A stretch of DNA of 64,000 nt from a virus (lineage: Duplodnaviria > Heunggongvirae > Uroviricota > Caudoviricetes), in the IMG/VR virus record IMGVR_UViG_3300045988_156427, one strand, 5' to 3'. The translations under genes and the position numbers were made by a program. Within the stretch, counting starts at the first letter, position 1, and every line of letters begins with the position of its first letter. The notes under the pieces are model-generated. The model was not told the origin of the DNA, did no database searches, and saw only the letters and a list, made by a program, of their open reading frames with translations. Positions 1 to 58,241 of the stretch are shown here, in pieces.

Positions 1-160
1 TAAGGCCTTTGAATAAGACAAAAGGCTGCCTCATCGCTAACTTTGCAACAGTGCCTTCAGAAGAAAATGCTGCTCCGTTACATTTCAGCCACCCCGTTGG
101 CGGTGTTTCTAAGGGCCACGGAACGGGCACGCCAACGGGCAATGCTGAGCCTTCCCCCAA
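1..160 (-). other. Partial tail-fibre cassette running off the window edge; first ~35 codons shared with the two complete cassettes, then diverges (possibly degenerate)
   Basis: Minus-strand frame open from TTG at 158-160 to position 1; codons 1-35 near-identical to ORFs 171-599 and 610-1077, remainder unrelated. Confidence 0.3.
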
Positions 161-177
161 ACCAACGTTTTCATGCC
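56..177. repeat. Tail-fibre cassette boundary repeat R1 with embedded invertase crossover-like site TTCCCCCAAACC-AA-CGTTTTCATGCC (152-177)
   Basis: About 115 bp near-identical to 498-616 and 976-1094; core resembles hix/gix/cix AAACCNNGGTTTT sites. Confidence 0.6.
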
Positions 178-599
178 GCCCTTACGATATAATTAAACGC
201 AATGTTACGAGGACGAATGGTTACATAATTAACCCCATCACCTCGTGAAGGCCCTGCAAATGAAAAACGGGAAAATCCAGGTTGGTTAGAAACAATTTGG
301 TCATAGTTATTGATTGAATGACCAGACCCAATGTCGAAATTACCTCCGTAATGAGAAAAACTTGTACCATCCTGCCCTGAAAGCAGGGTACGTCCCGCAT
401 CAATCCCGCGCCCATCATCCCAGCCACGGATAAATTCACCGCGTAAATCCGGTAATTTATTGGTGGGGTAGGCTTTTGCCAGTTTGGGATACATTTCAGA
501 AGAAAATGCTGCACCATTGCATTTTAGCCAGCCCGTTGGTGGTGTTTCTAAGGGCCACGGAACGGGCACACCAACAGGCAGTGCAGAGCCTTCCCCCAA
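171..599 (-). CDS. Tail-fibre C-terminal variable cassette (receptor-binding region)
   Basis: 142-aa ORF, TTG start at the crossover-like site; motif GWLKCNGAAFS...LPDLRGEFIRGWDDGRGID typical of tail-fibre C-termini; stop lies inside next repeat. Confidence 0.65.
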   Translation of the reverse strand: MGEGSALPVGVPVPWPLETPPTGWLKCNGAAFSSEMYPKLAKAYPTNKLPDLRGEFIRGWDDGRGIDAGRTLLSGQDGTSFSHYGGNFDIGSGHSINNYDQIVSNQPGFSRFSFAGPSRGDGVNYVTIRPRNIAFNYIVRAA

Positions 600-616
600 A
601 CCAACGTTTTTATGCC
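498..616. repeat. Tail-fibre cassette boundary repeat R2 with crossover-like site 591-616
   Basis: Direct repeat of R1/R3; homology with R1 extends to about 655. Confidence 0.6.
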
Positions 617-1077
617 GCCCTTACGATGTAATTAAATGCAATATTACGGGGGCGGGTTTCAGATGCTGTACGAACTGAGCGAGAGGCGTCGAATGTCCAG
701 TTATAAGAGCCATAACCCTCAATAATTTCCGTTTCCTTTAGGCCTGTAGATAATACTTGACCATGTTGACTAAATGGCCCTGAACTAAGTACATCTCTAA
801 AAAGCTGAGTACGCCCGAAAGAACCAACAATATTCTGAATTGCATCATTCTGTGCAGATAATAAATTACGGCCAGAGTCAATCCCCCGCCCGTCATCCCA
901 GCCGCGAATAAATTCGCCCCGTAGATCCGGCAATTTATTAGTAGGGTAAACCTTTGCCAGATTTGGGTACTTTTCAGAAGAAAATGCTGCACCATTGCAT
1001 TTCAGCCACCCCGTTGGCGGTGTGGCTGAGGGCCATGGAACAGGTACACCAACGGGCAGTGCCGAGCCTTCCCCCAA
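610..1077 (-). CDS. Tail-fibre C-terminal variable cassette (receptor-binding region)
   Basis: 155-aa ORF paralogous to 171-599: conserved N-terminal 35 aa and C-terminal RPRNIAFNYIVRAA, variable middle. Confidence 0.65.
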   Translation of the reverse strand: MGEGSALPVGVPVPWPSATPPTGWLKCNGAAFSSEKYPNLAKVYPTNKLPDLRGEFIRGWDDGRGIDSGRNLLSAQNDAIQNIVGSFGRTQLFRDVLSSGPFSQHGQVLSTGLKETEIIEGYGSYNWTFDASRSVRTASETRPRNIAFNYIVRAA

Positions 1078-1094
1078 ACCAACGTTTTAGTCTT
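976..1094. repeat. Tail-fibre cassette boundary repeat R3 with crossover-like site 1069-1094, adjacent to the invertase gene
   Basis: Direct repeat of R1/R2; sits about 55 bp upstream of the invertase start. Confidence 0.6.
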
Positions 1095-1148
1095 AATCCC
1101 TACCTATACCAACGATGTATTTTTAACTAAACAAAGAGGTTGTTTTTC

Positions 1149-1721
1149 ATGCAAATTGGCTACATTCGTGTGTCAACAAATGACCAAAACACAGATTTAC
1201 AAAGAAATGCACTGAACTGCGCAGGATGTGAACTGATTTTTGAAGATAAAATAAGCGGAACAAAGTCAGCCAGACCAGGCTTGAAAAAGCTGCTCAGAAC
1301 GTTATCAGAAGGAGATACGCTGGTTGTCTGGAAGCTGGATAGGCTTGGCAGAAGTATGAAACACCTTATCACGCTTATAGAGGAGTTGCGGGAAAAAGGT
1401 GTTAATTTCCGTAGTCTGACAGACAGTATTGACACATCAACACCCATGGGGCGTTTCTTTTTTCATGTCATGGGTGCTTTAGCAGAAATGGAACGTGAAT
1501 TAATTGTTGAGAGAACACTGGCCGGACTGGCAGCTGCACGCGAACAGGGACGCATTGGCGGACGTCGCCCGAAGTTGACAAAAGAACAACATGAGCAAAT
1601 AGCGAGGTTGATCGAAAATGGCTACAGCAGGAAACAGTTGGCAATTATTTACGATATCGGTGTATCGACGATTTATCGTTATCATCCTGTAGAGAAGCGC
1701 CAAACTCAATCTGAGCTGTAA
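1149..1721 (+). CDS. cin: Serine DNA invertase of the Cin/Gin/Hin/Min family
   Basis: MQIGYIRVSTNDQNTDLQRNAL... resolvase N-terminus with catalytic Ser, C-terminal HTH; ATG at 1149 with AGAGG RBS (track start 1140 is TTG). Confidence 0.9.
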   Translation: MQIGYIRVSTNDQNTDLQRNALNCAGCELIFEDKISGTKSARPGLKKLLRTLSEGDTLVVWKLDRLGRSMKHLITLIEELREKGVNFRSLTDSIDTSTPMGRFFFHVMGALAEMERELIVERTLAGLAAAREQGRIGGRRPKLTKEQHEQIARLIENGYSRKQLAIIYDIGVSTIYRYHPVEKRQTQSEL

Positions 1722-2156
1722 TTCTAATGCCGCGTCGGTGTAATTTATCTTGATAGAATAGGTACATTTATCGCGCGGCACATCAATTCGATGTATCTAG
1801 CGCCTGCTGACCGCTAATGAAAACTGTTCTCGAAATGTTGTCCCTAGTCCGAGACTAGGGTATCACCTCTGGAAAGCATACGCAGAACCTTTTTTAACCC
1901 AGGGTGCCCAGCCTTTTTGCTGCTCGCCTTATTCGCAAAAATTAGCTCACATCCTGCGCTTTCAAGTGCTTTTCACTGCATAGCTGTGTTTTGTTCATTT
2001 GTCTATATGCGTACATAGCCTATTAGCATATTTTTTGCCCACTATCGTTATTTATTGCAAGCCACAGGTTTTAATTAACAAAACCAGTGTGTGTGGAAAT
2101 CACAAAGTGCATACCGTTCTCAAATGTTGTTCAACTTACTGTTGTATAGGTAAAAA

Positions 2157-2420
2157 ATGACATTTTATGTACATATCGTGATGTTATCCCTTCTTGGTGG
2201 GGTGTATTCGTATTTGAGTGGGCTATGTGAAAACCGTTACGAGTCTTCATGCAAGAAATTGCTGGCCGAATGTATTTCCGCCGTACTTGCTGGCTTTATT
2301 GGCATGTATCTCGCGGAATATAAGGACATGAATGAAAGCCTTCAGAGCTGCATGGTTCTTATTTTCAGCGCCAATAGCAGGCTTATTATTGAAGGTTCCA
2401 AAAGTCGGTTGAATAGGTAA
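2157..2420 (+). CDS. Small membrane protein, possible lysis-cluster (holin-like) protein
   Basis: 87 aa, hydrophobic segments, directly upstream of lydA. Confidence 0.4.
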   Translation: MTFYVHIVMLSLLGGVYSYLSGLCENRYESSCKKLLAECISAVLAGFIGMYLAEYKDMNESLQSCMVLIFSANSRLIIEGSKSRLNR

Positions 2421-2494
2421 GTCTCTTATGCAACATAACCGGTTGAGAAGTTACTTTGCATACCATTACCTCCTGACAACGTAGGAGGGAACTT

Positions 2495-2824
2495 GTGCTT
2501 GACACACAGGAATTAGCTCCAGTTGCTATTGCGCTCCTGCTTTCAGTAATTGGTGGGATAGGCACGTTCCTGATGGATGTCCGAGACGGTCGCCAGTCTG
2601 GCAATTTGTTGGGATTGGTTACGGAGATCTTTGTTGCAGTGACAGCTGGCGCGGTGGCGTACCTATTGGGGCAACACGAGGGCTGGGAGTTATCAATTAC
2701 GTACTTAATGGTAACGATAGCCAGCAATAACGGTCATGAGGTGATTTCAGGGATGAAACGAGTGAATATCGATAGCATTCTGAATGTTCTTACAAGTTTG
2801 GTGAAAAAGGGAGGCGGGAAATGA
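2495..2824 (+). CDS. lydA: Holin LydA
   Basis: 109 aa, two or three TM segments, GTG start after AGGAGGG RBS; first gene of the lyd-dar operon by synteny. Confidence 0.6.
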   Translation: MLDTQELAPVAIALLLSVIGGIGTFLMDVRDGRQSGNLLGLVTEIFVAVTAGAVAYLLGQHEGWELSITYLMVTIASNNGHEVISGMKRVNIDSILNVLTSLVKKGGGK

Positions 2825-3264
2825 TTGGCTGGGGTGTATGCGTTCTTGCGTTAGCCTTAGCCGATCGCTATTTGCTAAAACGCAAGGACATCACGCATTT
2901 AGAACTTGGTGATGTGGAAATTAAACCGGGTTTCATCCGGGTGCCGTTCAAATACCGGTCTAAATTCCCGTTTTTGCGCGGCGCAACGGTCAGATATTGG
3001 ATCCGCGATGTTCAGAAGCCGACGACAGTGATTGAAGGCGAACAACGTTGTTTGACGTCGGCTGAACAGGGCGAAAACAGTGAATGGTTGTACATACCCA
3101 CTGAATATATGGGTAAAGGAGAGCGACTGTGGCATTTCAACGTCATGGTTACGCATGGCGACTCGTTCATTAACCCGTTGTATCGGATTTTCCCTGTTAC
3201 TCAGCAAATCCGCAGAAGTTACGTAATAAATCTCGCACAGGATGTGTCAGATGACGAAAAATAA
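2821..3264 (+). CDS. lydB: Antiholin-like LydB
   Basis: 147 aa, ATGA start/stop overlap with lydA; synteny. Confidence 0.5.
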   Translation: MIGWGVCVLALALADRYLLKRKDITHLELGDVEIKPGFIRVPFKYRSKFPFLRGATVRYWIRDVQKPTTVIEGEQRCLTSAEQGENSEWLYIPTEYMGKGERLWHFNVMVTHGDSFINPLYRIFPVTQQIRRSYVINLAQDVSDDEK

Positions 3265-3853
3265 GTATGCAACGGTCGATTTTGACCAGGTTAATGAAAA
3301 GGGGCTGAAATCCCTTATCGCGGCGATCAATAAAACCGGTGTTACGGTAATTGAGGTTGACTCCAGCAACCGCGCAACAACGAAAGATGGCGTTAAAGTT
3401 AAAACCGCAAAGCTGGTTCTTAACGACGGACAAATTCTTGCCATACAGGTAAACGATACTGGCGATATATCGTCTGTGAGGCTGAATGGAAAAGCTATTC
3501 CTAACGCTCAGTCGCCGGATATCAAGACGCTTGGTACCGTCATGGGGCAAGCGGCCCGCAAAAACTCCGCAAAATTCCAGAAATCACTGATCGCCAAAGC
3601 GAAACGTGTTGCCAATCCGGTAGACAAGAAACCGGCAGTAAAATCCAACTTTCAGCGCCTGCAAGAGGCAAAACAGCGGAATGCTCAGGTGGTTGCCGCT
3701 TATAAATCAGCGCAGAACTCGGTGTCTTTCAATCAACAGCAGATCACTGATTTGCGGGCGAAGCTGGATAAGGAGACAGGCCGACTCAATAACGAAAAGG
3801 CCCGAAATGGCGAACTCAAACGCCGTCTTAAGCAACTGAAAGCAGGAAATTAA
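3251..3853 (+). CDS. hdf: Hdf, head-associated Dar-operon protein
   Basis: About 200 aa, coiled-coil C-terminus; start moved to ATG 3251 with AGGA RBS; synteny upstream of darA. Confidence 0.5.
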   Translation: MTKNKYATVDFDQVNEKGLKSLIAAINKTGVTVIEVDSSNRATTKDGVKVKTAKLVLNDGQILAIQVNDTGDISSVRLNGKAIPNAQSPDIKTLGTVMGQAARKNSAKFQKSLIAKAKRVANPVDKKPAVKSNFQRLQEAKQRNAQVVAAYKSAQNSVSFNQQQITDLRAKLDKETGRLNNEKARNGELKRRLKQLKAGN

Positions 3854-3854
3854 C

Positions 3855-5774
3855 ATGGAACAGTTCAATATCAATAAAGGGGTGACGATCAAGCCTGGGC
3901 TTGACGTGCTTCCCCCGCCAGTGACTGATGATGAATATCGCGCATTAATGGCCGGTGAGGACCGCTATCTGATGACGGAATCCAACACCCTGGAAGAAAT
4001 CGAGGCTACGTTCTTCTATGACACGCCGATCCACTGGTGTGCTACGGATTTACTGGAGGCGATTAGTTCTACTCGTTTGCAGCTACACCGGACCATGCAG
4101 GCATTTGTCCGGGCATTGAACCAGAAGCTGAATGGTACCGGAATCTCTGCGGGGAGTGATAAAACGGGGGATGTGGCCCAGAACGGTGCACGCGCGATCG
4201 GCGGGGCTGAAATTGGCCGGGCACGTAACGTTAACGGGCTGCCGGTTCTGCCAGCCATTATTCCGCTCAGTGATGGTCAGACTATCAGCATTCTGTTTCA
4301 TAGCCCGACAGCGGAAAACCGGATCACCAATAGCGATACGCTGATTGCTTTCCAGTTCTTACTGAATAAAAAAGACGTTACTCATACCGTTGCTCCGATG
4401 AGTGGACGTGATATGACGCTGGCGCAGGTCACCATGAAACTTGCCAACCTTGCAGAGAAAAACTCGGCAAAATTCCAGCGTGCGCAGAAGAAGAAAAAAG
4501 CCCTGGTTGATGAAATAACCCAACTACAGGCTGACAGTGACCAGAAAGAGGATGCCATGAGCGACCTCGCGGATCAGGTGGCAGCGGTAGAAGGGCAGAA
4601 GGTAGATTTGGAGCAGAAAATTAACGCTGTTGCATCGGAAGCGGATTCTCTTTATGAAGAGAATGAGCGTTTGCAGACGGAGATTGATCAGCTCAATCGC
4701 ACTGGTGGGCGCGAAACCATTGCTCCTGCGGGGATGACTGGTGGACACTCTCGCGCGATGACGGATCGCCTTGCAAGTATCAAAAATCGTATGCATATGA
4801 ACGGGGAAGTGACGCTCAGTAATGGTGCATCAATGAAGCAATTCATTGAGGACGGTGAAGGGTATATCCAGTTAACCGATTCGGATGGCAGCGTGTACAT
4901 GATCAAGGCTAAATCCATACAGGGCGTGGACATGGCAGATGCGATCGGCAAGCTGTTTAAAGCCTATAAAGCGGGTAATGTATCGGAATACCTGGTCCAA
5001 ACAGAAGAACATAAACCGGAAAAGGTCGAACCTGAACCAGCGGAGGATACCGGTAGCTCTTCGCCTGAACCAGAAGTCTCTGTAGGTGCATATCGATATG
5101 CCCTGCAAATGCGTCCGGCGGCCCCTGGCGCAATACCTGAAAGTAACAAAGCAATTCTGCCGCGCCCTGATGAAGGTGACCCGTATTATGAATATGCACG
5201 CTACGGCATTGCTACTTACGATACCCCGATTTCTGATCAGCAAATGAGTGAGTACGACCTGAAGTTATTGCCTCGCGAGGATTCTTTCGACTTCCTGGCG
5301 AAGACACTTACTAATGGTCCGTTTGGCAAATATGCACAAAAAGCTCTGGAGCTGGCCACCAGCTCACCAGACGAGTTCCGCGTAATGCTGAAAACTCAGT
5401 TTCAAAAAACTTTCCCCAATATTGCGTTTCCTGGGGGCGCTGGCACCGAGAAAATGGTGCAGAGCATGATCAATGCATTGCAGGCCGAAGTCGGTGAGAT
5501 TACTCAGCCAGAACCGGCCCCGGCACAGCCTGATGAAACGGTTAGCGAAGCAGATGCAGAGGCTAATAAAGCCATTGAATATCTCAATAACGTGATGGAT
5601 ATGCAAAGCACTGACATGGCGGAGATCCGTAACGCTCGGGGCAATGTCCGGGAAGCGATTGCAGCCCTTCAGGCTGCCGGACGTTTTGAGGAAAACGAAG
5701 AGCTGGTTAACGGCGCAGCTCGCCACCTGGCTGATCTGTTGGTAGCAATCCAGAAAGCGGGGGTAGCGGCATGA
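3855..5774 (+). CDS. darA: DarA, virion-packaged anti-restriction protein
   Basis: 639 aa; position and size match the P1 dar operon. Confidence 0.7.
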   Translation: MEQFNINKGVTIKPGLDVLPPPVTDDEYRALMAGEDRYLMTESNTLEEIEATFFYDTPIHWCATDLLEAISSTRLQLHRTMQAFVRALNQKLNGTGISAGSDKTGDVAQNGARAIGGAEIGRARNVNGLPVLPAIIPLSDGQTISILFHSPTAENRITNSDTLIAFQFLLNKKDVTHTVAPMSGRDMTLAQVTMKLANLAEKNSAKFQRAQKKKKALVDEITQLQADSDQKEDAMSDLADQVAAVEGQKVDLEQKINAVASEADSLYEENERLQTEIDQLNRTGGRETIAPAGMTGGHSRAMTDRLASIKNRMHMNGEVTLSNGASMKQFIEDGEGYIQLTDSDGSVYMIKAKSIQGVDMADAIGKLFKAYKAGNVSEYLVQTEEHKPEKVEPEPAEDTGSSSPEPEVSVGAYRYALQMRPAAPGAIPESNKAILPRPDEGDPYYEYARYGIATYDTPISDQQMSEYDLKLLPREDSFDFLAKTLTNGPFGKYAQKALELATSSPDEFRVMLKTQFQKTFPNIAFPGGAGTEKMVQSMINALQAEVGEITQPEPAPAQPDETVSEADAEANKAIEYLNNVMDMQSTDMAEIRNARGNVREAIAALQAAGRFEENEELVNGAARHLADLLVAIQKAGVAA

Positions 5775-6136
5775 CACTATCAGCTATTGAGTTAATGGAT
5801 CTCAGCGATAAGTTGGATGCTCTGATGTCCAAAGCGGCTACCGCGAGTGGCATGGAGTTGCTGGATATCAGCGATGAAATTGACCAGATCATGCAACAGA
5901 TGGGGTACGGTGTGTCCGGCGGCAGTAGTGGCGAGGAAAAACAACCTTCGGTACATGATGGTGTGCCAAAACTGGTTGCTGATTTCCTGGCTGATAAATT
6001 CGTCGATCAGAGCACCGATGCATTTATCGGTACCTTGCAGGATTTGAGTCAATATGTTGGCACATACATCGACCTGGACCAGGTTAAACAGCACACGGCG
6101 GCATGGATAGCCGCCAACATTAAAGAGGCAGCATAA
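5771..6136 (+). CDS. ddrA: DdrA, small acidic Dar-operon protein
   Basis: 121 aa, ATGA overlap with darA stop; synteny. Confidence 0.5.
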   Translation: MTLSAIELMDLSDKLDALMSKAATASGMELLDISDEIDQIMQQMGYGVSGGSSGEEKQPSVHDGVPKLVADFLADKFVDQSTDAFIGTLQDLSQYVGTYIDLDQVKQHTAAWIAANIKEAA

Positions 6137-6148
6137 GGCGTAACAGGG

Positions 6149-9136
6149 ATGAGCTTAAGCGATCAGGTGGTGATGGCCACCAGCATAGAAACGCTGATCG
6201 AGCTGCTAAAAAACCTGCCCGATTACGGGCGGGTTTCGTATGTGGTGACAGCGAAGGGAGACGAGGTAAAAACAGCGTTTGATATCGTCGATGCCTCAGC
6301 TCTTTTGGTATCCAATACTCTGGATGGGAAAATTAATCCAGACTATCCCCAGGAACTTCAGCCGCGCGACCGGACCCGCGCATCCAGCCTTCTTCAGGTC
6401 AACCAGATATCCAAGGATTTGCGTCCTGCCCAGCTTACCGATTCCGGTTTATCCAGCCATGGCGCGCCGATAATTGGTGAGGACAATGCCATTGAGTCAG
6501 GTAATGGACGGACCATGGGGATCATCAAAGCCTATCAGGACGGCAATGCGGATCGGTATCGTGAGTACCTGATTGAACATGCGACCGAATTCGGAATACG
6601 ACCTGAAAAGGTTGAATCAATGACGGCTCCGGTACTGGTGCGCCGCCGGTTAACGAAGGTTGACCGTGTTCAGTTTGCCAAGGACTCAAATATTTCTGAT
6701 CTCCAGGAAATGGCAGCCAGTGAAAAGGCTTTTGTTGATGCCGACAGCATAACTCCGGCGATGATGGCGCTGTTTAACCCATCAGAAAGCGGAGATCTGC
6801 TTAGCCGCAGTAATGACGCGTTTATTCGCGGGTTCATGACGCAAGTTGGTGCCACACAGGCTGCTGGCCTTGTAACGGAAGATGGGCGACCAACACGGCA
6901 ACTTGTTGACCGTATACAAAACGCGATCTTTGCCAAGGCATATAAGGATGCGCGCCTGGTAAGAATGGTTGCAGAAGAACCTGATCCGGATATGCGTAAT
7001 GTTCTGACGGCGCTTAATGCGGCAGCCAATGATTTTGTCCAGATGCAGGCTTTATCAGGAGAAGCGCACAAGCAGGCTGTGACAACTATTGTTGATGGTA
7101 TTGAGACAGCGGATAGTCTCGATAAAAAGGCGCTGGCGGCATTGAAAGATGCGGTAGACCTGGTAAGGCAATCGAAGGAGTCAGGCCAACATATTACCGA
7201 TGTTATTGCTCAGGGGGATATGTTCAGCGAAACAGCCCCGGAAGTGAAAGCTCTCGCGTTGTTCATCGTCGCGAATAACCGTAGCGCGAAGCGTATGGCC
7301 ACCGCCTTTAAGTTGATGGCTCAACGTATCAATGATGAGTTACAGCACCAGGGCCAGGCTCTGGGGGATATGTTTGGCGGCGGCGATGTGTCGTTACAGG
7401 ATATCCTTCGCCAGGTGTCTCAGGAACTGGAAAACGAAGGCATGCAAGGGATATCCGGCGGTCTTTTCGAGTCCGTTTCCGGCGGTAGTTACAACGGTGT
7501 TGCTCCGTATACCAGTTTGCTATTACATCGGGCATCCGGCATCAAAGACATTATTCATCTGATCAGGCTGCTTTCCCGCACAGATCCCCAGGATGAACAG
7601 CTTGTACAAGTGCTTGCGCATTTTGTTCGAATGCCTGTTGCCGACGTGAAAAAATGGTGCCGATTATTCGGTATCAGCAATTCGTTACTTCGCGGCTTGT
7701 TAAATCACGCATCCTCCCTTGGGCGCGATGGCTTTGACGAGATAGCGCAGGCGATAAAAAACGGAGATATGCCACCAGCTATTGACTGGTTTTCCATTCG
7801 CCCAACCAGGGTGAAAGCATTCCTTAGCGCGGCGCATTCGGCATCACCATTGGCAGAAATGGTTCAGAGGTTGTCGCTCATATTCACAGACCATACCGCG
7901 TTGGGTGATCTGACTCTGGACGAGATGAAAGAAGCCTCCATTCAGTGGGCCGATCAACAAAATGAGGTTAACTCAGACTTCTTGCCAGCATTCAGGAAGG
8001 CCGTTAGTAAAGCGGATGATGCCCGTGGAATTCTGAAGGCATTTAAGGCATTGCAAAGTCGTGTTAATAAACATGTCGGTGATATCGATGGGGTAACGGC
8101 GGAAGGCCGGGATATCCTTAAAGAGCACGGCATAACGCCAGAGTTTATTGATGAGATCAGGACTGATATGCAGCGTGAGGTCGTATCGTCCCTGCAAATC
8201 GTAGTCAGAGCGTTGGCGGATGCTAATCCGAAGAGTGCGGCCATTGTTAACCGGGTTATTGGTGATATTGAAGCATCGGAGGGCATGGGGGCGCTGAAAC
8301 TCTTCCTGTCGCGAGCGTTTAATCCTAACGGCAATATTCTCCCTGGCATTATTGGTGAGGCTAAAAAGTATGTCAGTGAAGAAGAACTTGAGCAGCTTGA
8401 CCAACTACTTAAGCGATTCTCATATAACCCGCAGACACGCTGGCAAATGAATCAGCGAAGTATGGGTTCGGTCCACGAGAAAGTGTTATCTGCCATGAAC
8501 AGTGCGATCGCAAACTCATCCGTATCTGAAGAAAAAGCTCTTGAGTGGGCCGACTCTTTTATCACGGAAGAAGTGGAAGAAGCCCGCGCTGGACAGAATG
8601 GTGGGATAGACCTGCGCAAGGAACTTGCTGATATTTATCGCCTGACCGGCGGGAAAATATCGACCTTATCAAAAGTGGTTCACCACCAGGGAAGGGCATA
8701 TGCAAATCTAAATGGTGTTGTTGCTGTCAATTTGAACGATGAAAATGCAAGTGCACTGTGGCACGAGCTGGGTCATCATCTTGAGTACAGTAACCCTGGT
8801 TTGTTAGAGAAAGCCCGGTCATTCCTGAAGGCCAATGTTGAAGGGGATAAGCCATCTTTCGTCAATATCGGTGGGCGTGGCAAGCCTGAATGGTGCTTCA
8901 GATCTCGATTGAGTAATATTTATATGGCGAAGGTATACCCGCCAGCCTCAGTAAGTAACACCGGGAAAATTCGGCAGAAATCACCGACTATTTCCAAAAC
9001 GTCAGCAACGGAAGTATTCTCTATGGCTCTTCAGTTGTATCATGACAAAGAGGCCGCTGCCGCATCACTGATGAATGGTGACGGATTGCTGGAACTGTTA
9101 TTAGGTGTGGCAAAGGAGCTAAATAATGCAGATTAA
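6149..9136 (+). CDS. ddrB: DdrB, large Dar-operon protein
   Basis: 995 aa; synteny and size. Confidence 0.6.
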   Translation: MSLSDQVVMATSIETLIELLKNLPDYGRVSYVVTAKGDEVKTAFDIVDASALLVSNTLDGKINPDYPQELQPRDRTRASSLLQVNQISKDLRPAQLTDSGLSSHGAPIIGEDNAIESGNGRTMGIIKAYQDGNADRYREYLIEHATEFGIRPEKVESMTAPVLVRRRLTKVDRVQFAKDSNISDLQEMAASEKAFVDADSITPAMMALFNPSESGDLLSRSNDAFIRGFMTQVGATQAAGLVTEDGRPTRQLVDRIQNAIFAKAYKDARLVRMVAEEPDPDMRNVLTALNAAANDFVQMQALSGEAHKQAVTTIVDGIETADSLDKKALAALKDAVDLVRQSKESGQHITDVIAQGDMFSETAPEVKALALFIVANNRSAKRMATAFKLMAQRINDELQHQGQALGDMFGGGDVSLQDILRQVSQELENEGMQGISGGLFESVSGGSYNGVAPYTSLLLHRASGIKDIIHLIRLLSRTDPQDEQLVQVLAHFVRMPVADVKKWCRLFGISNSLLRGLLNHASSLGRDGFDEIAQAIKNGDMPPAIDWFSIRPTRVKAFLSAAHSASPLAEMVQRLSLIFTDHTALGDLTLDEMKEASIQWADQQNEVNSDFLPAFRKAVSKADDARGILKAFKALQSRVNKHVGDIDGVTAEGRDILKEHGITPEFIDEIRTDMQREVVSSLQIVVRALADANPKSAAIVNRVIGDIEASEGMGALKLFLSRAFNPNGNILPGIIGEAKKYVSEEELEQLDQLLKRFSYNPQTRWQMNQRSMGSVHEKVLSAMNSAIANSSVSEEKALEWADSFITEEVEEARAGQNGGIDLRKELADIYRLTGGKISTLSKVVHHQGRAYANLNGVVAVNLNDENASALWHELGHHLEYSNPGLLEKARSFLKANVEGDKPSFVNIGGRGKPEWCFRSRLSNIYMAKVYPPASVSNTGKIRQKSPTISKTSATEVFSMALQLYHDKEAAAASLMNGDGLLELLLGVAKELNNAD

Positions 9137-9434
9137 AATCGCAGCGCCATTAGGCGGAGATGCCATTATCGAATTTGATGATAATGAAGAAGTTTCCGGG
9201 CGTTTAAGCATTATCTCCGGTGACATTACCGAGGACATGATCGCTGAAGCCATAGCTGGGGCAAATCCCAATAGCTATATGGGATTCGTTAACACCCTTG
9301 ATGCTCCCGCAAGTGATGTTCTCCGAACGCTGCATCTTTACGCTGGCTGGTTTGTTGATTGGCCAGCAGTAGATGGTGGCGATGAGGACGACGACGATGA
9401 TTTTGGTGATCATGTAGACCAGATCGTATATTGA
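9126..9434 (+). CDS. Small acidic protein ending in an Asp-rich tail, last gene of the dar operon
   Basis: 102 aa, strong AAGGAG RBS, overlaps ddrB stop. Confidence 0.55.
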   Translation: MQIKIAAPLGGDAIIEFDDNEEVSGRLSIISGDITEDMIAEAIAGANPNSYMGFVNTLDAPASDVLRTLHLYAGWFVDWPAVDGGDEDDDDDFGDHVDQIVY

Positions 9435-9437
9435 AGA

Positions 9438-9462
9438 AATCCCGCCAATCGGCGGGATTTTT
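9438..9462. terminator. Bidirectional intrinsic terminator between convergent operons
   Basis: AAATCCCGCC-AATC-GGCGGGATTT hairpin followed by a T-run, 4 nt after the stop at 9434. Confidence 0.7.
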
Positions 9463-9465
9463 ACC

Positions 9466-10560
9466 TCACGAGAAGCTTTTTTCTGATGTCAGCCAACAGT
9501 GCTCGTGCAAATCTCTTGGTGGTTTTTCGACAAATGCCTCTTCAGCCACATCCTGCCAGGGGATTTGTTTAGTCCATTCAGCTATAGCGTTATGGTTTGC
9601 CGAGAATAACGGTATTGTATAGGCCTTCAGCCAGTCTAATGTGCTGGAGTTGTGTTTTTGAGCGTGATGTTTCGCATGGTGTTTGGCGATCACGATCGTA
9701 GGCACTACCCATTTACTACCGTCAGTCATTGTGAAGTGCATATTACGGGGAACAGATGACTTTTCCATCAACTCCCGAATCCCGGGAAATTTCCCCAAGA
9801 TCAATCGGCGATATTCATCGCTATTGCGCCCACCAAACTCTTTGGCTTTGAATTCAAGATATGCTTCAGAAACGAGAGGTGAATCCTCTGTGTTTAGAGT
9901 TATCGCCGTGAAAAAACCAGCAGGATTGTTTTTACTATGGGCCAACCGGTGATGCGAATCATAAAAGTACCCTTTCTCGCGTTCCGATGGTTTCGACAGC
10001 AACAGCAGGCGCGAGTCATAATTGGTTAAATTGCCAGTTATCACTGCATGAGCGCGATCGCTGATTTCCGCCGAGTTAATAACGATGAAAAGATCGTGCG
10101 GTCCAGTAAAACCAGCCAGAGACTCTTCGTTATTCAGACAATAGGTTATATAGACGCATCCCCATGTTTCACTGATATGCACCAACCCTTTGTCAGGGTG
10201 TATTCTGAAATAATTGCCAAGAAAAGGGTGTTTTTGGGTAACTCGCTCCCAATAACGGAACATATAGTCAATTATTGTTTTTCGACTATCGTTAATCGCA
10301 GGAGAAACAACCACTGTACGGGAACACGAATACAGTATTGTTTGCAGGATGCTAATCACTGCCACAATAGAGGTTTCCCCAATACCATGTGGTGTGGTGG
10401 CAGTGACTTTGGCTCCGGTGTTCTTTATCGCGTTAATAATTTTTGCTTGATGAGGTGTTAACTCAATATCAAGCAACTCTTTTGCTGCCAGTTCCCAATT
10501 GTCTTTATACCGTTCTATCAGTGCTAACCAGGCAGATTCATTCTGTATACGATTAATCAC
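9466..10560 (-). CDS. PacB paralogue: terminase large-subunit ATPase-domain homologue with degenerate Walker motifs, no nuclease domain
   Basis: 364 aa; shares [22 protein letters not shown] and GGR blocks with PacB (29798-31282); Walker A is GIGET, Walker B is NS in place of DE. Confidence 0.6.
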   Translation of the reverse strand: MINRIQNESAWLALIERYKDNWELAAKELLDIELTPHQAKIINAIKNTGAKVTATTPHGIGETSIVAVISILQTILYSCSRTVVVSPAINDSRKTIIDYMFRYWERVTQKHPFLGNYFRIHPDKGLVHISETWGCVYITYCLNNEESLAGFTGPHDLFIVINSAEISDRAHAVITGNLTNYDSRLLLLSKPSEREKGYFYDSHHRLAHSKNNPAGFFTAITLNTEDSPLVSEAYLEFKAKEFGGRNSDEYRRLILGKFPGIRELMEKSSVPRNMHFTMTDGSKWVVPTIVIAKHHAKHHAQKHNSSTLDWLKAYTIPLFSANHNAIAEWTKQIPWQDVAEEAFVEKPPRDLHEHCWLTSEKSFS

Positions 10561-23374: not shown

Positions 23375-24679
23375 CTATATAAACTTAGATATAATATCGT
23401 GAATCTGTTGTAGCGGGATTTCTTCCATCTTACTCTTAATAAGAGAGCGGTTAGATGCTGTCAGTGAAGGCCATTTTGTTTTCCAGGCTAGATATGCTCG
23501 CCATGAGTAGCCTGTTTCGTAAGGTTTATTCATATAAGTCATTGAGTGTTCAACCGCATGTATGTATTTTTTCTCAAAGTTGGTTCCTTTTACTTCAAAT
23601 AAACTACCGAAATAAATAAGCCATTTTGCCAGGTGTTCATACTGCTCCCATGCGCCAGACTCTTTAGTAAGATCTATTTTTTTATCTATTATATCACAAA
23701 AAACATTTAATACCTTTTCATCATTCCAGCTATATCCAGATGATGAAATGGAGGAAATGATATGATAAAAAGAATCCTCTAACTTCAAGAACTCTATTTT
23801 ATACTCTCTTCCGTTTTTTATTACCGATTTGATTGAGTGCCTCAATTTGTCTTTTATTTTTTTTGCTTCTGGAATTTTCTTGTTAAGTTTTCTAAAGAAA
23901 TCAGACACCTCTGTTTTATCTATAACCCTAATCCCAAAGCAGGAAAAATAGTAATCTTTAATAGGTTGCAATAGTTTTCCTCGGGAAATAAGGAAAATAT
24001 TGGAGGACATTACGTTGTCCCGTGAAAATACCTTATATTCATTTATAATCGCCTTGAGGTTCGCGTCACTTAGAGAATAGCCAAGAATAACAATAGTGTT
24101 TTCATGTAGAACTGTGCTTAGTTTATTTGAAAAGTAAGAATTACCATTTATAAATCTGAAATAATCCTCGCTAGTAACAACCATATCTGATGGGGAGTCT
24201 ATAGAGCCGTGAACATGGTAGACTTTAACCTCACAATTATATTTTGGAATTGGCAGGCCGGGGGTGATTGTACACGTTCGATTCTCTCCAGCCAGTTTTT
24301 CTGCTAACTTGTCATAATTTGTCGTAATTACTTTAAATGTGTTTTCTTTGAAAAAGTCTTGAATATATTCAATTGATGGATCAAGTTCGATTGAGGCTAT
24401 GATTTTCTCAATCTCCTGGTAAATATTTTTCCCCGAAAGTATAAATTTTAGTGCAATAACCTGAGCAGCCTCTTCAAGGCTAAGGTCTTTTGCTTTTCCA
24501 TCAGGAAATAATTCCTCTTTGAGTGAGTCACCATCCTTCAATAAACCGCACAGTTGCTCCAATAAAGATTGCCAACTTGGGGCTTTATCATCAGAAACAG
24601 CCTTTGAAAATCCAGTGCCTGTAAGAAAGCACAGCCTATGTGTAGCTGCTGCATAGGCAATTTCTATATACTCGCTCAT
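23375..24679 (-). CDS. SIR2-like (DHS-like NAD-binding) protein with an uncharacterised ~170-aa C-terminal domain; candidate NADase defence effector
   Basis: 434 aa; GTGFS (aa 21-25), TTNYD (119-123), VHGS (156-159), ILGYSLSD (198-205) fit SIR2-family motifs; AT-rich island; ATG with GGAG RBS. Confidence 0.75.
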   Translation of the reverse strand: MSEYIEIAYAAATHRLCFLTGTGFSKAVSDDKAPSWQSLLEQLCGLLKDGDSLKEELFPDGKAKDLSLEEAAQVIALKFILSGKNIYQEIEKIIASIELDPSIEYIQDFFKENTFKVITTNYDKLAEKLAGENRTCTITPGLPIPKYNCEVKVYHVHGSIDSPSDMVVTSEDYFRFINGNSYFSNKLSTVLHENTIVILGYSLSDANLKAIINEYKVFSRDNVMSSNIFLISRGKLLQPIKDYYFSCFGIRVIDKTEVSDFFRKLNKKIPEAKKIKDKLRHSIKSVIKNGREYKIEFLKLEDSFYHIISSISSSGYSWNDEKVLNVFCDIIDKKIDLTKESGAWEQYEHLAKWLIYFGSLFEVKGTNFEKKYIHAVEHSMTYMNKPYETGYSWRAYLAWKTKWPSLTASNRSLIKSKMEEIPLQQIHDIISKFI

Positions 24680-56384: not shown

Positions 56385-56460
56385 TGGTGGCCCCTACCGG
56401 ACTTGAACCGGTGACCGTGCGATTATGAGTCGCCAGCTCTAACCACTGAGCTAAAGGGCC
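56385..56460 (-). tRNA. tRNA with anticodon CAU (Ile2-lysidine type or Met)
   Basis: 76-nt cloverleaf: acceptor GGCCCTT/AGGGGCC, GCTCAGTGGTTAGAGC D-arm, GGTTCAAGTCC T-arm, encoded CCA. Confidence 0.85.
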
Positions 56461-58087: not shown

Positions 58088-58163
58088 TGGTGCCGATTAA
58101 CGGACTCGAACCGCTGACATCCTGCTTACAAGGCAGGCGCTCTACCAACTGAGCTAAACCGGC
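58088..58163 (-). tRNA. tRNA-Thr (anticodon UGU)
   Basis: 76-nt cloverleaf GCCGGTTTAGCTCAGTTGGTAGAGC...CTTGTAA...GGTTCGAGTCC...CCA. Confidence 0.9.
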
Positions 58164-58165
58164 AT

Positions 58166-58241
58166 TGGCGATGGTGGATGGATTTGAACCATCGACCCGT
58201 TGATTAACAGTCAACCGCTCTAACCGCTGAGCTACACCATC
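58166..58241 (-). tRNA. tRNA-Asn (anticodon GUU)
   Basis: 76-nt cloverleaf GATGGTGTAGCTCAGCGGTTAGAGC...CTGTTAA...GGTTCAAATCC...GCCA. Confidence 0.9.

Follow-up and report, generated by a model that had tools for sequence, protein, structure and literature searches.

Organisation of the locus

The window (by which we mean the whole 64,000 nt stretch analysed here) is collinear from position 56 to 63998 with the IncY plasmid NZ_LR890538.1 (30447-95776) at 97-99% identity, and an Rfam search of its whole length returned three tRNAs only. Its first part carries, in order, the end of an IS26 element, a truncated tail-fibre cassette, two silent tail-fibre tip cassettes, an intact serine DNA invertase gene and the remnant of a second invertase gene, with three crossover sites at the cassette boundaries.

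The core TTCCCCCAAACCAACGTTTT of these sites is present in exactly three copies, at 152, 591 and 1069, all on the plus strand and with 0 mismatches, and allowing up to 3 mismatches brought up no other copy in the whole 64 kb (shuffle expectation 0.00). The mix-like site 1 (152-177, TTCCCCCAAACC AA CGTTTTCATGCC), site 2 (591-616, TTCCCCCAAACC AA CGTTTTTATGCC) and site 3, which forms the invertase-proximal boundary (1069-1094, TTCCCCCAAACC AA CGTTTTAGTCTT), all lie on the plus strand and are 26 bp long, in each of which a 2-bp core is flanked by half-sites of 12 bp with imperfect symmetry, and the pattern TTCCCCCAAACC-AA-CGTTTTnnnnnn, found three times, matches the consensus of the Din family of serine DNA invertases (Hin/Gin/Cin/Pin/Min). 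The three sites agree in their left halves and differ in their right halves. The half-site GGTTTGGGGGAA and the consensus for Mu, P1, e14 and p15B are listed in Table 3 of PMC4134206. The 26-mer of site 1 recurs in the related plasmids that we label L001, L005, L007, L008 and L010, and with one mismatch in L009, while the right half AGTCTT was found only at the invertase-adjoining site in every relative examined.

The sites are embedded in longer repeats. One family has three copies of 160 nt each (56-215, 495-654 and 973-1132), the second and third of which are 90% and 73% identical to the first, and a second family pairs 362-610 with 840-1088 (249 nt, 82% identity), a match by which the likeness between cassettes reaches deeper into them. 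The original prediction had described direct repeats of about 115 bp, each with a 26-bp crossover-like site in the same orientation, and the three identical plus-strand cores bear this out. Position 56, where the first repeat begins, is the IS26 junction and no natural repeat boundary.

The tail-fibre cassettes are gene segments

Counted from the half-site, the type B cassette (171-602, minus strand) has 143 codons with its stop at 171-173, and the type C cassette (610-1080, minus strand) has 156 codons with its stop at 610-612. The predicted minus-strand ORFs with a tail-fibre motif were found at 171-599 (142 aa) and 610-1077 (155 aa), and both carry LPDLRGEFIRGWDDGRG and match the Phage Tail Collar domain (PF07484, E about 1e-14). 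All cassettes start in one common frame at the half-site and the middles of types B and C are different sequences. Their last 14 residues (RPRNIAFNYIVRAA) are identical as had been claimed, whereas the first 35 agree at 33/35, residues 17-18 being LE in one and SA in the other. Of the truncated cassette A' (56-163, minus strand) only the first 36 codons remain (GLGEGSALPVGVPVPWPLETPPTGWLKCNGAAFSSE) before the frame enters IS26; translated from the half-site GGTTTGGGGGAA, it matches the corresponding stretches of the two others at 98/108 and 96/108 nt.

Each TTG codon falls within a site and each stop within the right half of the site that follows, where they had been placed, but the reading of TTG as a start codon fails, as the frame of the tail-fibre gene S passes through the site in the relative L001 and TTG is therefore an internal Leu codon. 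A promoter and terminator scan of 1-2500 gave nothing above shuffled expectation and no cassette promoter. The two cassettes, which had been called complete, are instead promoterless 3' gene segments in which this Leu lies within the fusion (…NYLGLGEGS…).

Invertase gene, putative enhancer and pseudo-cin remnant

Adjoining the array as predicted is an intact invertase gene of the Min type (1149-1721, plus strand), which is transcribed away from the cassettes and encodes 190 aa with a Resolvase domain (PF00239, E 2e-51, residues 3-135) and a C-terminal HTH_7 domain (PF02796, E 3e-15, residues 138-180). Residues 1-185 match the Gin structures 4m6f and 3uj3 (E about 4e-92) and the RVSTNDQ motif with Ser9 aligns, so that in its length of about 190 aa, its resolvase catalytic domain with serine nucleophile and its C-terminal HTH_7 the protein has the make-up of a Din-family invertase. 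Identity to P1 Cin is 74%, with Cin and Gin ranging from 74 to 80%. The exact invertase sequence is present on at least 1000 contigs and corresponds to the UniRef entry Q05517_ECOLX, and the invertase region is carried by 146 PLSDB plasmids at ≥95% identity.

Within the 5' end of the gene lies a putative recombinational enhancer, or Fis-binding region (1167-1238), with homology to the P1 cin enhancer: nucleotides 19-90 of the invertase gene share 58/72 nt with the annotated P1 element at the equivalent position in the gene. Residues Q150, R153 and L154 of the invertase correspond, in a numbering taken through the Gin alignment, to the Fis-contacting Q151, R154 and L155 of Hin (PMC3798978). Judged by this homology, 1167-1238 would probably function as an enhancer.

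Beyond the invertase gene, 1853-2118 (minus strand) is 89% identical to P1 31570-31836, which comprises the cin promoters and the cin 5' end. This pseudo-cin remnant, with its promoter region, lies in the same orientation as cin in P1 and has an ATG at 2029, from which the frame reads MLIGYVRI before a stop and then meets more stops; 62/72 nt match the P1 enhancer. The P1 record itself annotates matching homology in p15B at nt 7147-7408. By megablast the window invertase gene has no detectable similarity to P1 cin DNA, and the pseudo-cin remnant alone matches.

An IS26 end truncates the array

According to the original prediction the array ran off the start of the window. It does not, for the first 55 nt (plus strand) are the end of an IS26 element, which cuts the third cassette at 55/56 and limits the cassette array. 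The 14-nt IS26 terminal inverted repeat GGCACTGTTGCAAA is present exactly at 42-55 on the minus strand, positions 1-62 are 96.8% identical to annotated IS26 and positions 1-58 are 100% identical to other records, with 55 nt of IS26 in the window. Homology to P1-like plasmids starts precisely at 56, and the 8 bp of cassette that adjoin the IS26 end are TTCAGAAG. The source metagenome scaffold, traced through the DarA protein to ENA HEQI17-1_SAMEA4431896_METAG-scaffold_188, stops at window position 1-2, which is 55 nt within IS26, and reaches 23.7 kb past the other end of the window.

When window positions 1-420 were compared with PLSDB and complete E. coli genomes, no record with this IS26-cassette junction was found and every array match began at 56; an exact 32-mer spanning the junction likewise had no match in 185,579 species genomes. 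CP088789.1, whose start corresponds roughly to window position 56, was considered as a record sharing the junction and was rejected, as it is a circular record merely opened there, with S at the record's end.

IS26-cut arrays are also found in pD72C (L005, NZ_MK419152.1) and in NZ_LR890200.1 (L008), in both of which an IS26 end adjoins the conserved 5' portion of a cassette, the 8 remaining sites are all direct and the constant 5' part of S (Sc) is not adjacent. These plasmids differ from the window in having kept 8 sites, and pD72C has ISApl1-mcr-1 within the region. The junction positions differ among the three, which makes them independent events. Two of these three junctions in the Min cassette region, that of the window at 55/56 and that of pD72C, fall within one 17-nt stretch, a coincidence for which chance was estimated at about 5%.

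Intact relatives carry reshuffled cassettes

Nowhere in the 64-kb window was there an inverted partner site, an Sc or the tail-fibre assembly gene U. The inverted site pair in cis that is a feature of Din-invertase systems is absent from the window and present in intact relatives, and the window lacks it because it is truncated by IS26 and the scaffold end. Possession of more than two crossover sites, which delimit overlapping invertible segments and are a feature of the Min type, is seen both in the window, with three, and in the intact relatives L001, L007 and L009, which have 7 sites each in both orientations (3 minus and 4 plus, 3 minus and 4 plus, and 2 minus and 5 plus, respectively) between S and the same invertase, with flanks like those of the window.

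In L001 in-frame fusion can be read directly, the S frame running through the site (...SVLNYLGLGEGSALPVGVPVPWPLETPP..., also ...NYLGLGEGSALPV...) into a type B cassette that, compared by eye, differs from window 171-599 by one substitution over the stretch compared. Relatives of this kind use the cassettes as alternative 3' ends for S, joined to it in frame at the site, and in the window cassettes B and C are silent. Cassette types B, C, D, E, F, K and L recur across plasmids in varied order and orientation: type F is on the minus strand in L001 and on the plus strand in L009, E followed by U is on the plus strand in L001 and on the minus strand in L009, and the expressed cassette is B in L001 and K in L009. 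Type C is shared with L001, L005, L007, L008 and L009, being invertase-proximal in four of these and internal in L008. These differences in cassette order are between plasmids, not within one population, and other recombination could contribute to them.

Comparison with known systems

The Min system of the E. coli 15T- plasmid/prophage p15B was reportedly described by Iida et al. in 1990 and by Sandmeier et al. in 1990 and 1992, and p15B is said to have 6 crossover sites. Like the window it is a P1-related plasmid prophage replicon, and it probably shares the arrangement in which an invertase gene that is reversed relative to P1 cin is followed by a pseudo-cin remnant and lydC/lydA, and in which several 26-bp sites part alternative 3' ends of the S tail-fibre gene. 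By arithmetic, the p15B coordinates given in the P1 annotation convert to window coordinates by a constant offset of 5290 at three landmarks (enhancer, 6463-6533 to 1173-1243; pseudo-cin, 7147-7408 to 1857-2118; lydA, 7785 to 2495). Unlike p15B the window shows the right-hand part only, with three direct sites, two cassettes and a stump, and is ended by IS26; intact modern relatives have 7 sites, and cassette repertoires vary by plasmid. For a P1-like plasmid whose invertase gene is reversed in this way, 98.5% identity of the invertase to p15B Min has been published (PMC6906374). Taken with the coordinate fit and the UniRef entry, this statement on a related plasmid points indirectly to the window invertase being Min itself (GenBank X62121). 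The Min serine recombinase makes multiple inversions that result in variable tail fibres (PMC6109161).

The Cin system and C-segment of P1, and likewise Gin and the G-segment of Mu and Pin of e14, share with the window a serine invertase, the position of the enhancer (putative in the window) in the 5' end of its gene and 26-bp sites with a 2-bp core, and in P1 too a constant S part is fused to an invertible variable part. P1 differs in having two sites and one 4.2-kb segment with two large Sv-U modules, whereas the Min type has many sites and cassettes of about 0.45 kb, and P1 cin points the opposite way to the window invertase. The altered C-segments in P1-like plasmids (Venturini et al. 2019) belong, together with the IS26-truncated Min arrays, to the close known systems. 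The R64 shufflon (Rci) and the Rin shufflon of Bifidobacterium prophages are alike in having a constant 5' part, alternative 3' cassettes and a recombinase at the edge (PMC6109161), but they use tyrosine recombinases and unrelated short sites, in contrast to the serine invertase of the Hin/Gin/Cin group seen here. In E. coli prophages a stable 5' part fused to an invertible 3' part with a Collar domain has been described (PMC4134206).

Interpretation and proposed mechanism

The original prediction of a multi-cassette tail-fibre variation locus of the Min type beside a Cin-family invertase is upheld by the 74% identity to Cin, the relatives with 7 sites and the reshuffled cassettes. We conclude that window 56-2118 very probably represents the part next to the invertase in a Min multiple-inversion region of the p15B type, carried by a P1-like IncY phage-plasmid that was recovered by metagenome assembly.

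In an intact region of this type Sc ends in the half-site TTCTTAATTACC-TT (also given as TTCTTAATTACCTTGG and TTCTTAATTACCTTGGTTTGGGGGAA), and each cassette opens with the conserved half-site GGTTTGGGGGAA and closes just past its stop with a variable half-site. As the cassette ends are half-sites, each internal 26-bp site is the junction of one cassette's 3' end and the next one's 5' end. The sites are convergent, those left of the region's centre pointing in one direction and those right of it in the other, a pattern that is kept through any inversion. The serine invertase, presumably with Fis bound at the enhancer that lies near the start of the invertase gene, would swap the two central base pairs between opposed sites so that the DNA between them flips, another cassette being fused in frame to Sc and giving a new receptor-binding tip and host range. 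In invertasomes built with Fis and an enhancer, intramolecular inversion is the exclusive outcome (PMC3798978); the present copy presumably depends on Fis and the enhancer too.

What remains of such a region in view are three direct sites, the silent cassettes B and C, the 36-codon stump, the pseudo-cin remnant and the intact invertase gene with the putative enhancer inside it. As only direct sites are visible and the family is limited to intramolecular inversion between inverted sites, the visible part cannot switch alone, and switching here would require Sc and at least one inverted site still in cis beyond IS26. With IS26 ending the array at 55/56, this copy is truncated and possibly a frozen remnant, and the left part of the Min region may have been lost.

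It is possible, though we think it rather doubtful, that the switch is still functional and that IS26, or an IS26-bounded module, has simply inserted in one cassette, with Sc, opposed sites and U directly beyond it, so that B and C could be fused to Sc and IS26 would be a passenger. The invertase gene, the putative enhancer region and both cassettes (B and C) are undamaged, short-read assemblers break at any repeated IS, which makes the scaffold end uninformative on what lies beyond, and simple IS26 insertions with 8-bp duplications are documented in P1-like plasmids (PMC6906374). Against this, the two plasmids with IS26 at the array, pD72C and NZ_LR890200.1, have Sc non-adjacent and 8 direct sites, and the exact junction is absent from all collections searched. 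The scaffold is moreover 87.7 kb long compared with 95-97 kb in close relatives; if it is collinear past the window about 8 kb would be missing, a weak hint obtained by arithmetic, and this stretch would span baseplate genes, R, S and the left half of Min.

That the junction of cassette and IS26 is chimeric, the real molecule having an uninterrupted Min region, seems to us very unlikely. The junction occurs in no other record searched, the source is a short-read metagenome scaffold, and shufflon repeats break or confuse assemblies (PMC4134206), but the join coincides to the nucleotide with the outer boundary of the IS26 terminal inverted repeat, as transposition yields and as is improbable for a random chimera, and finished plasmids have independent IS26 junctions in the equivalent cassette region.

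We give almost no weight to an ordinary two-site switch of the Cin/Gin type accompanied by non-functional tandem duplicates of cassettes and sites: three direct repeats with identical cores could suggest it, yet the middles of B and C differ in sequence, cassette types are expressed, silent, inverted and reordered across plasmids, and relatives with 7 sites in both orientations are not the single inverted pair with inert duplicates that had been named as grounds for refuting the original prediction. Excision of cassettes as circles between direct sites, in the manner of a resolvase or an integron, is just as hard to credit, for although the sites are direct and the enzyme belongs to the resolvase/invertase superfamily, it is 74-80% identical to the enhancer-dependent invertases Cin and Gin, enhancer homology is kept in its gene, its subclass is described as inversion-exclusive (PMC3798978), inversion systems favour reverse-oriented sites over deletion between same-oriented ones (PMC11850598) and long direct-site arrays are stably present in many plasmids. 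An R64-type shufflon (the recombinase is serine-type, not tyrosine-type), a diversity-generating retroelement (neither a reverse transcriptase nor a template repeat was found among the ORFs of 1-6000) and plain tandem duplication (the cassette middles differ) were rejected.

One could speculate that the conserved 5' part of the Min cassettes is a recurrent IS26 target or a selected breakpoint, by which resistance-carrying P1-like phage-plasmids lose the tail-fibre gene and become plain plasmids, and that a frozen array of direct repeats with an active invertase persists as a reservoir. P1-like or P2-like prophages resident in the same cell and having the same half-site might then draw on it, either in trans or following recombination. 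The support for this, the three independent IS26 junctions, is anecdotal, and we consider the scenario unlikely.

The Min-type system has long been known and is an ordinary one, the layout seen here apparently matching that published for p15B and occurring in well over a hundred sequenced plasmids, and the locus makes no open question testable, its relevance being chiefly for annotation. A run of direct sites beside an invertase is what half of a Min-type region normally looks like and no new layout, and ORFs called as phage tail proteins by annotation pipelines in such arrays are promoterless 3' gene segments whose TTG encodes an internal Leu. Given the IS26 cut, the element may no longer be able to switch host range and has perhaps lost its tail fibres as well, a possible loss of switching that fits the published picture in which IS elements erode P1-like phage-plasmids during the uptake of cargo.

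Cassettes, sites and invertase at the left end of the window

Three direct repeat copies were recovered by repeat search (56-215, 495-654 and 973-1132), each with the crossover-like site originally predicted for it. A 20-nt core, TTCCCCCAAACCAACGTTTT, is identical in every copy, at 152, 591 and 1069, always on the plus strand; shuffled sequence gave an expectation of 0.00 occurrences against the 3 observed, and no fourth copy was found in the 64 kb with up to 3 mismatches allowed. The predicted minus-strand tail-fibre cassettes (171-599 and 610-1077) are both real ORFs with a Phage Tail Collar domain (PF07484). Their first 35 residues, taken to be identical, are similar with 33 of 35 matching, and cassette-to-cassette similarity reaches 249 nt at 82%, beyond these shared residues. 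In the third "repeat" only the opening 36 codons of a cassette (A') are present, after which the frame of this cassette runs into IS26; the order in the window is IS26 / A' (stump), B, C-invertase.

The invertase gene is present at 1149-1721 as expected and encodes a 190 aa protein with Resolvase and HTH_7 domains which is 74% identical to Cin of P1, with Gin crystal-structure sequences matching residues 1-185 at an E value of about 4e-92. At least 1000 contigs carry this exact sequence, which is that of UniRef Q05517_ECOLX. Within the gene, 58 of the 72 nt at positions 19-90 equal the annotated P1 cin enhancer, and Q150, R153 and L154 align with Hin Q151, R154 and L155 (numbering derived from the Gin structure alignment), the Hin residues that contact Fis (PMC3798978).

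A Min-type locus, probably laid out as in p15B

The p15B homologies quoted in the P1 GenBank record (locus ECP15BG) fit the window with a single offset of 5290, placing the enhancer homology (p15B 6463-6533) at 1173-1243, the remnant of the cin promoter and 5' end (7147-7408) at 1857-2118 and the lydA start (7785) at 2495. A remnant of a second invertase (pseudo-cin) lies on the minus strand at 1853-2118, with an ATG at 2029; it reads MLIGYVRI followed by a stop, with more stops after, shows 89% identity to the promoter and 5' end of P1 cin and has a second enhancer-like stretch matching the P1 enhancer at 62 of 72 nt. According to the P1 record p15B likewise has a cin remnant.

Positions 56-63998 are collinear at 97-99% identity with the IncY P1-like phage-plasmid NZ_LR890538.1 (30447-95776), in which the gene order is sit, baseplate genes, R, the tail-fibre gene S, cassette region, invertase, lydC, lydA, lydB, darA, onwards. 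The cassette region of this plasmid and of two further intact relatives (L007 and L009) has 7 sites in each, oriented 3-/4+, 3-/4+ and 2-/5+ respectively. The 7-site relatives, the same invertase and the p15B coordinate fit together strongly support the Min-type multiple-inversion interpretation.

Site types differ by position in the intact relatives. At the S-proximal site the right half is GGTAATTAAGAA, supplied by the constant part of S (Sc); at the invertase-proximal site it is CGTTTTAGTCTT, as at window 1069, and at internal sites it is CGTTTT(T/C)ATGCC, as at 152 and 591. On the coding strand internal sites read as a cassette 3' end, GGCAT(A/G)AAAACG, then TT, then the 5' end of the following cassette, GGTTTGGGGGAA. 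In NZ_LR890538.1 the S frame, which includes SIQSVLNYLGLGEGSALPVGVPVPWPLETPPTGW, crosses the S-proximal site unbroken into a cassette and ends in NYIVRAA and a stop; this cassette is of the 171-599 type, with one substitution noted by eye over the stretch compared. Since the S frame reads through the site, the TTG at which the cassettes had been proposed to start as complete genes is, as read from the sequence, an internal Leu codon within L-G-L-G-E-G. A promoter scan gave nothing above chance for the cassettes, which are 3' gene segments with neither promoter nor start.

Exchange at the central dinucleotide would pair the Sc site with any oppositely oriented site, joining Sc to the partner's cassette and flipping all DNA between the two. 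By this reasoning an arrangement in which the left-hand sites are minus-oriented and the right-hand ones plus-oriented would survive every such inversion, so that a series of direct sites next to the invertase would be the normal half-structure of the region. Fis/enhancer invertasomes give intramolecular inversion as the sole outcome (PMC3798978) and bacterial inversion systems favour reverse-oriented sites over deletion at same-oriented ones (PMC11850598), which is why the three direct sites in the window are predicted not to be substrates for one another.

Among the six relatives in which cassettes were typed the same types sit at different places. The order is Sc-B D E-U / F D B C-invertase in NZ_LR890538.1 (U being the assembly gene) and Sc-K F / U-E B D L C-invertase in L009, and in NZ_LR890200.1 type C is internal and type B invertase-proximal. 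This comparison, between plasmids rather than populations within one plasmid, suggests that the crossover sites are in use.

The array of NZ_LR890538.1 contains types D (6661-7140 plus, 8734-9213 minus) and B (6222-6653 plus, 9221-9652 minus) twice in opposite orientations, so arrays can hold duplicates as long inverted repeats; one protein accession, WP_071987237.1, is annotated twice there. In the deposited genome of phage vB_EcoM-673R5 (ON470615.2) the invertase, at 8214-8785, is split as 'Hin1/Hin2' and most cassettes are frameshifted, probably through sequencing error rather than biology.

IS26 truncates the array

The array does not run off the window start, as had been supposed, but ends at IS26: positions 1-55 are its outer end, with the 14-nt terminal inverted repeat at 42-55, positions 1-62 match annotated IS26, and array matches to P1-like plasmids all start exactly at 56. 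The source metagenome scaffold (HEQI17-1_SAMEA4431896_METAG-scaffold_188; ENA ERZ28579881; 87,741 bp) agrees with the window at all of 15,773 nt (0 mismatches) and stops at window position 1-2, so this assembly offers no extension upstream. An end 55 nt inside a repeated IS26 suggests a break of the kind that de Bruijn assembly produces at k=55. Neither PLSDB nor the complete E. coli genomes nor the GTDB species genomes contain the exact IS26-cassette junction.

Truncation on the left, of any extent, would leave direct sites only; in pD72C (NZ_MK419152.1) and NZ_LR890200.1 an IS26 end adjoins a truncated cassette and all 8 remaining sites are direct. Close relatives exceed the scaffold in length by about 8 kb, which, if the scaffold is collinear, hints weakly at loss of the baseplate-R-S-left-Min interval. 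We favour, with some reservation, a frozen remnant; simple IS26 insertion into a switch that is still operable is a distinctly less likely account of the same junction.

The three independent IS26 right-end junctions (pD72C 680-1499, NZ_LR890200.1 3855-4674, window 42-63) are located in the conserved 5' portion of Min cassettes. Those of the window and pD72C both lie within one 17-nt stretch, GCAGCATTTTCTTCTGAA, but on different sides and with the cassettes oppositely oriented, which could be target preference or coincidence. In pD72C ISApl1 and mcr-1.1 also lie within the Min region remains (2666-5461), with the tail-fibre assembly gene to one side and, to the other, an array made up of eight direct cassettes.

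Other features of the window

A 434 aa SIR2-like protein is encoded on the minus strand at 23375-24679 (PF13289; PADLOC PDC-S25 and ThsA-like matches). The gene sits where NZ_LR890538.1 has its SIR2 gene yet shows no megablast alignment to it, which makes it a divergent allele in what is probably a defence hot-spot. Likewise without a megablast match to this plasmid are 35784-36844 and 38942-42851, segments with DUF551, Ead/Ea22-like and PAPS-reductase-like ORFs that belong to a variable accessory part of the phage-plasmid. Both ARAGORN and Rfam gave three minus-strand tRNA genes, Met-CAT, Thr-TGT and Asn-GTT (56385-56460, 58088-58241).

Relation to described systems

Min has been described as a serine-recombinase shufflon producing variable tail fibres (PMC6109161). 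The half-site GGTTTGGGGGAA and Collar-domain 3' fragments are known from E. coli prophages, where the fragments are mis-annotated as separate tail proteins (PMC4134206). In a P1-like plasmid reported by Venturini et al. the invertase has 98.5% identity to p15B Min and is reversed relative to cin; the authors also described loss or modification of the C-segment through IS in resistance-carrying P1-like plasmids (PMC6906374). At 95% identity or above, 146 plasmids in PLSDB and 164 records among the complete E. coli genomes carry the invertase region (window 1060-1850). The system is thus already known and common, and the window holds a truncated copy of it.
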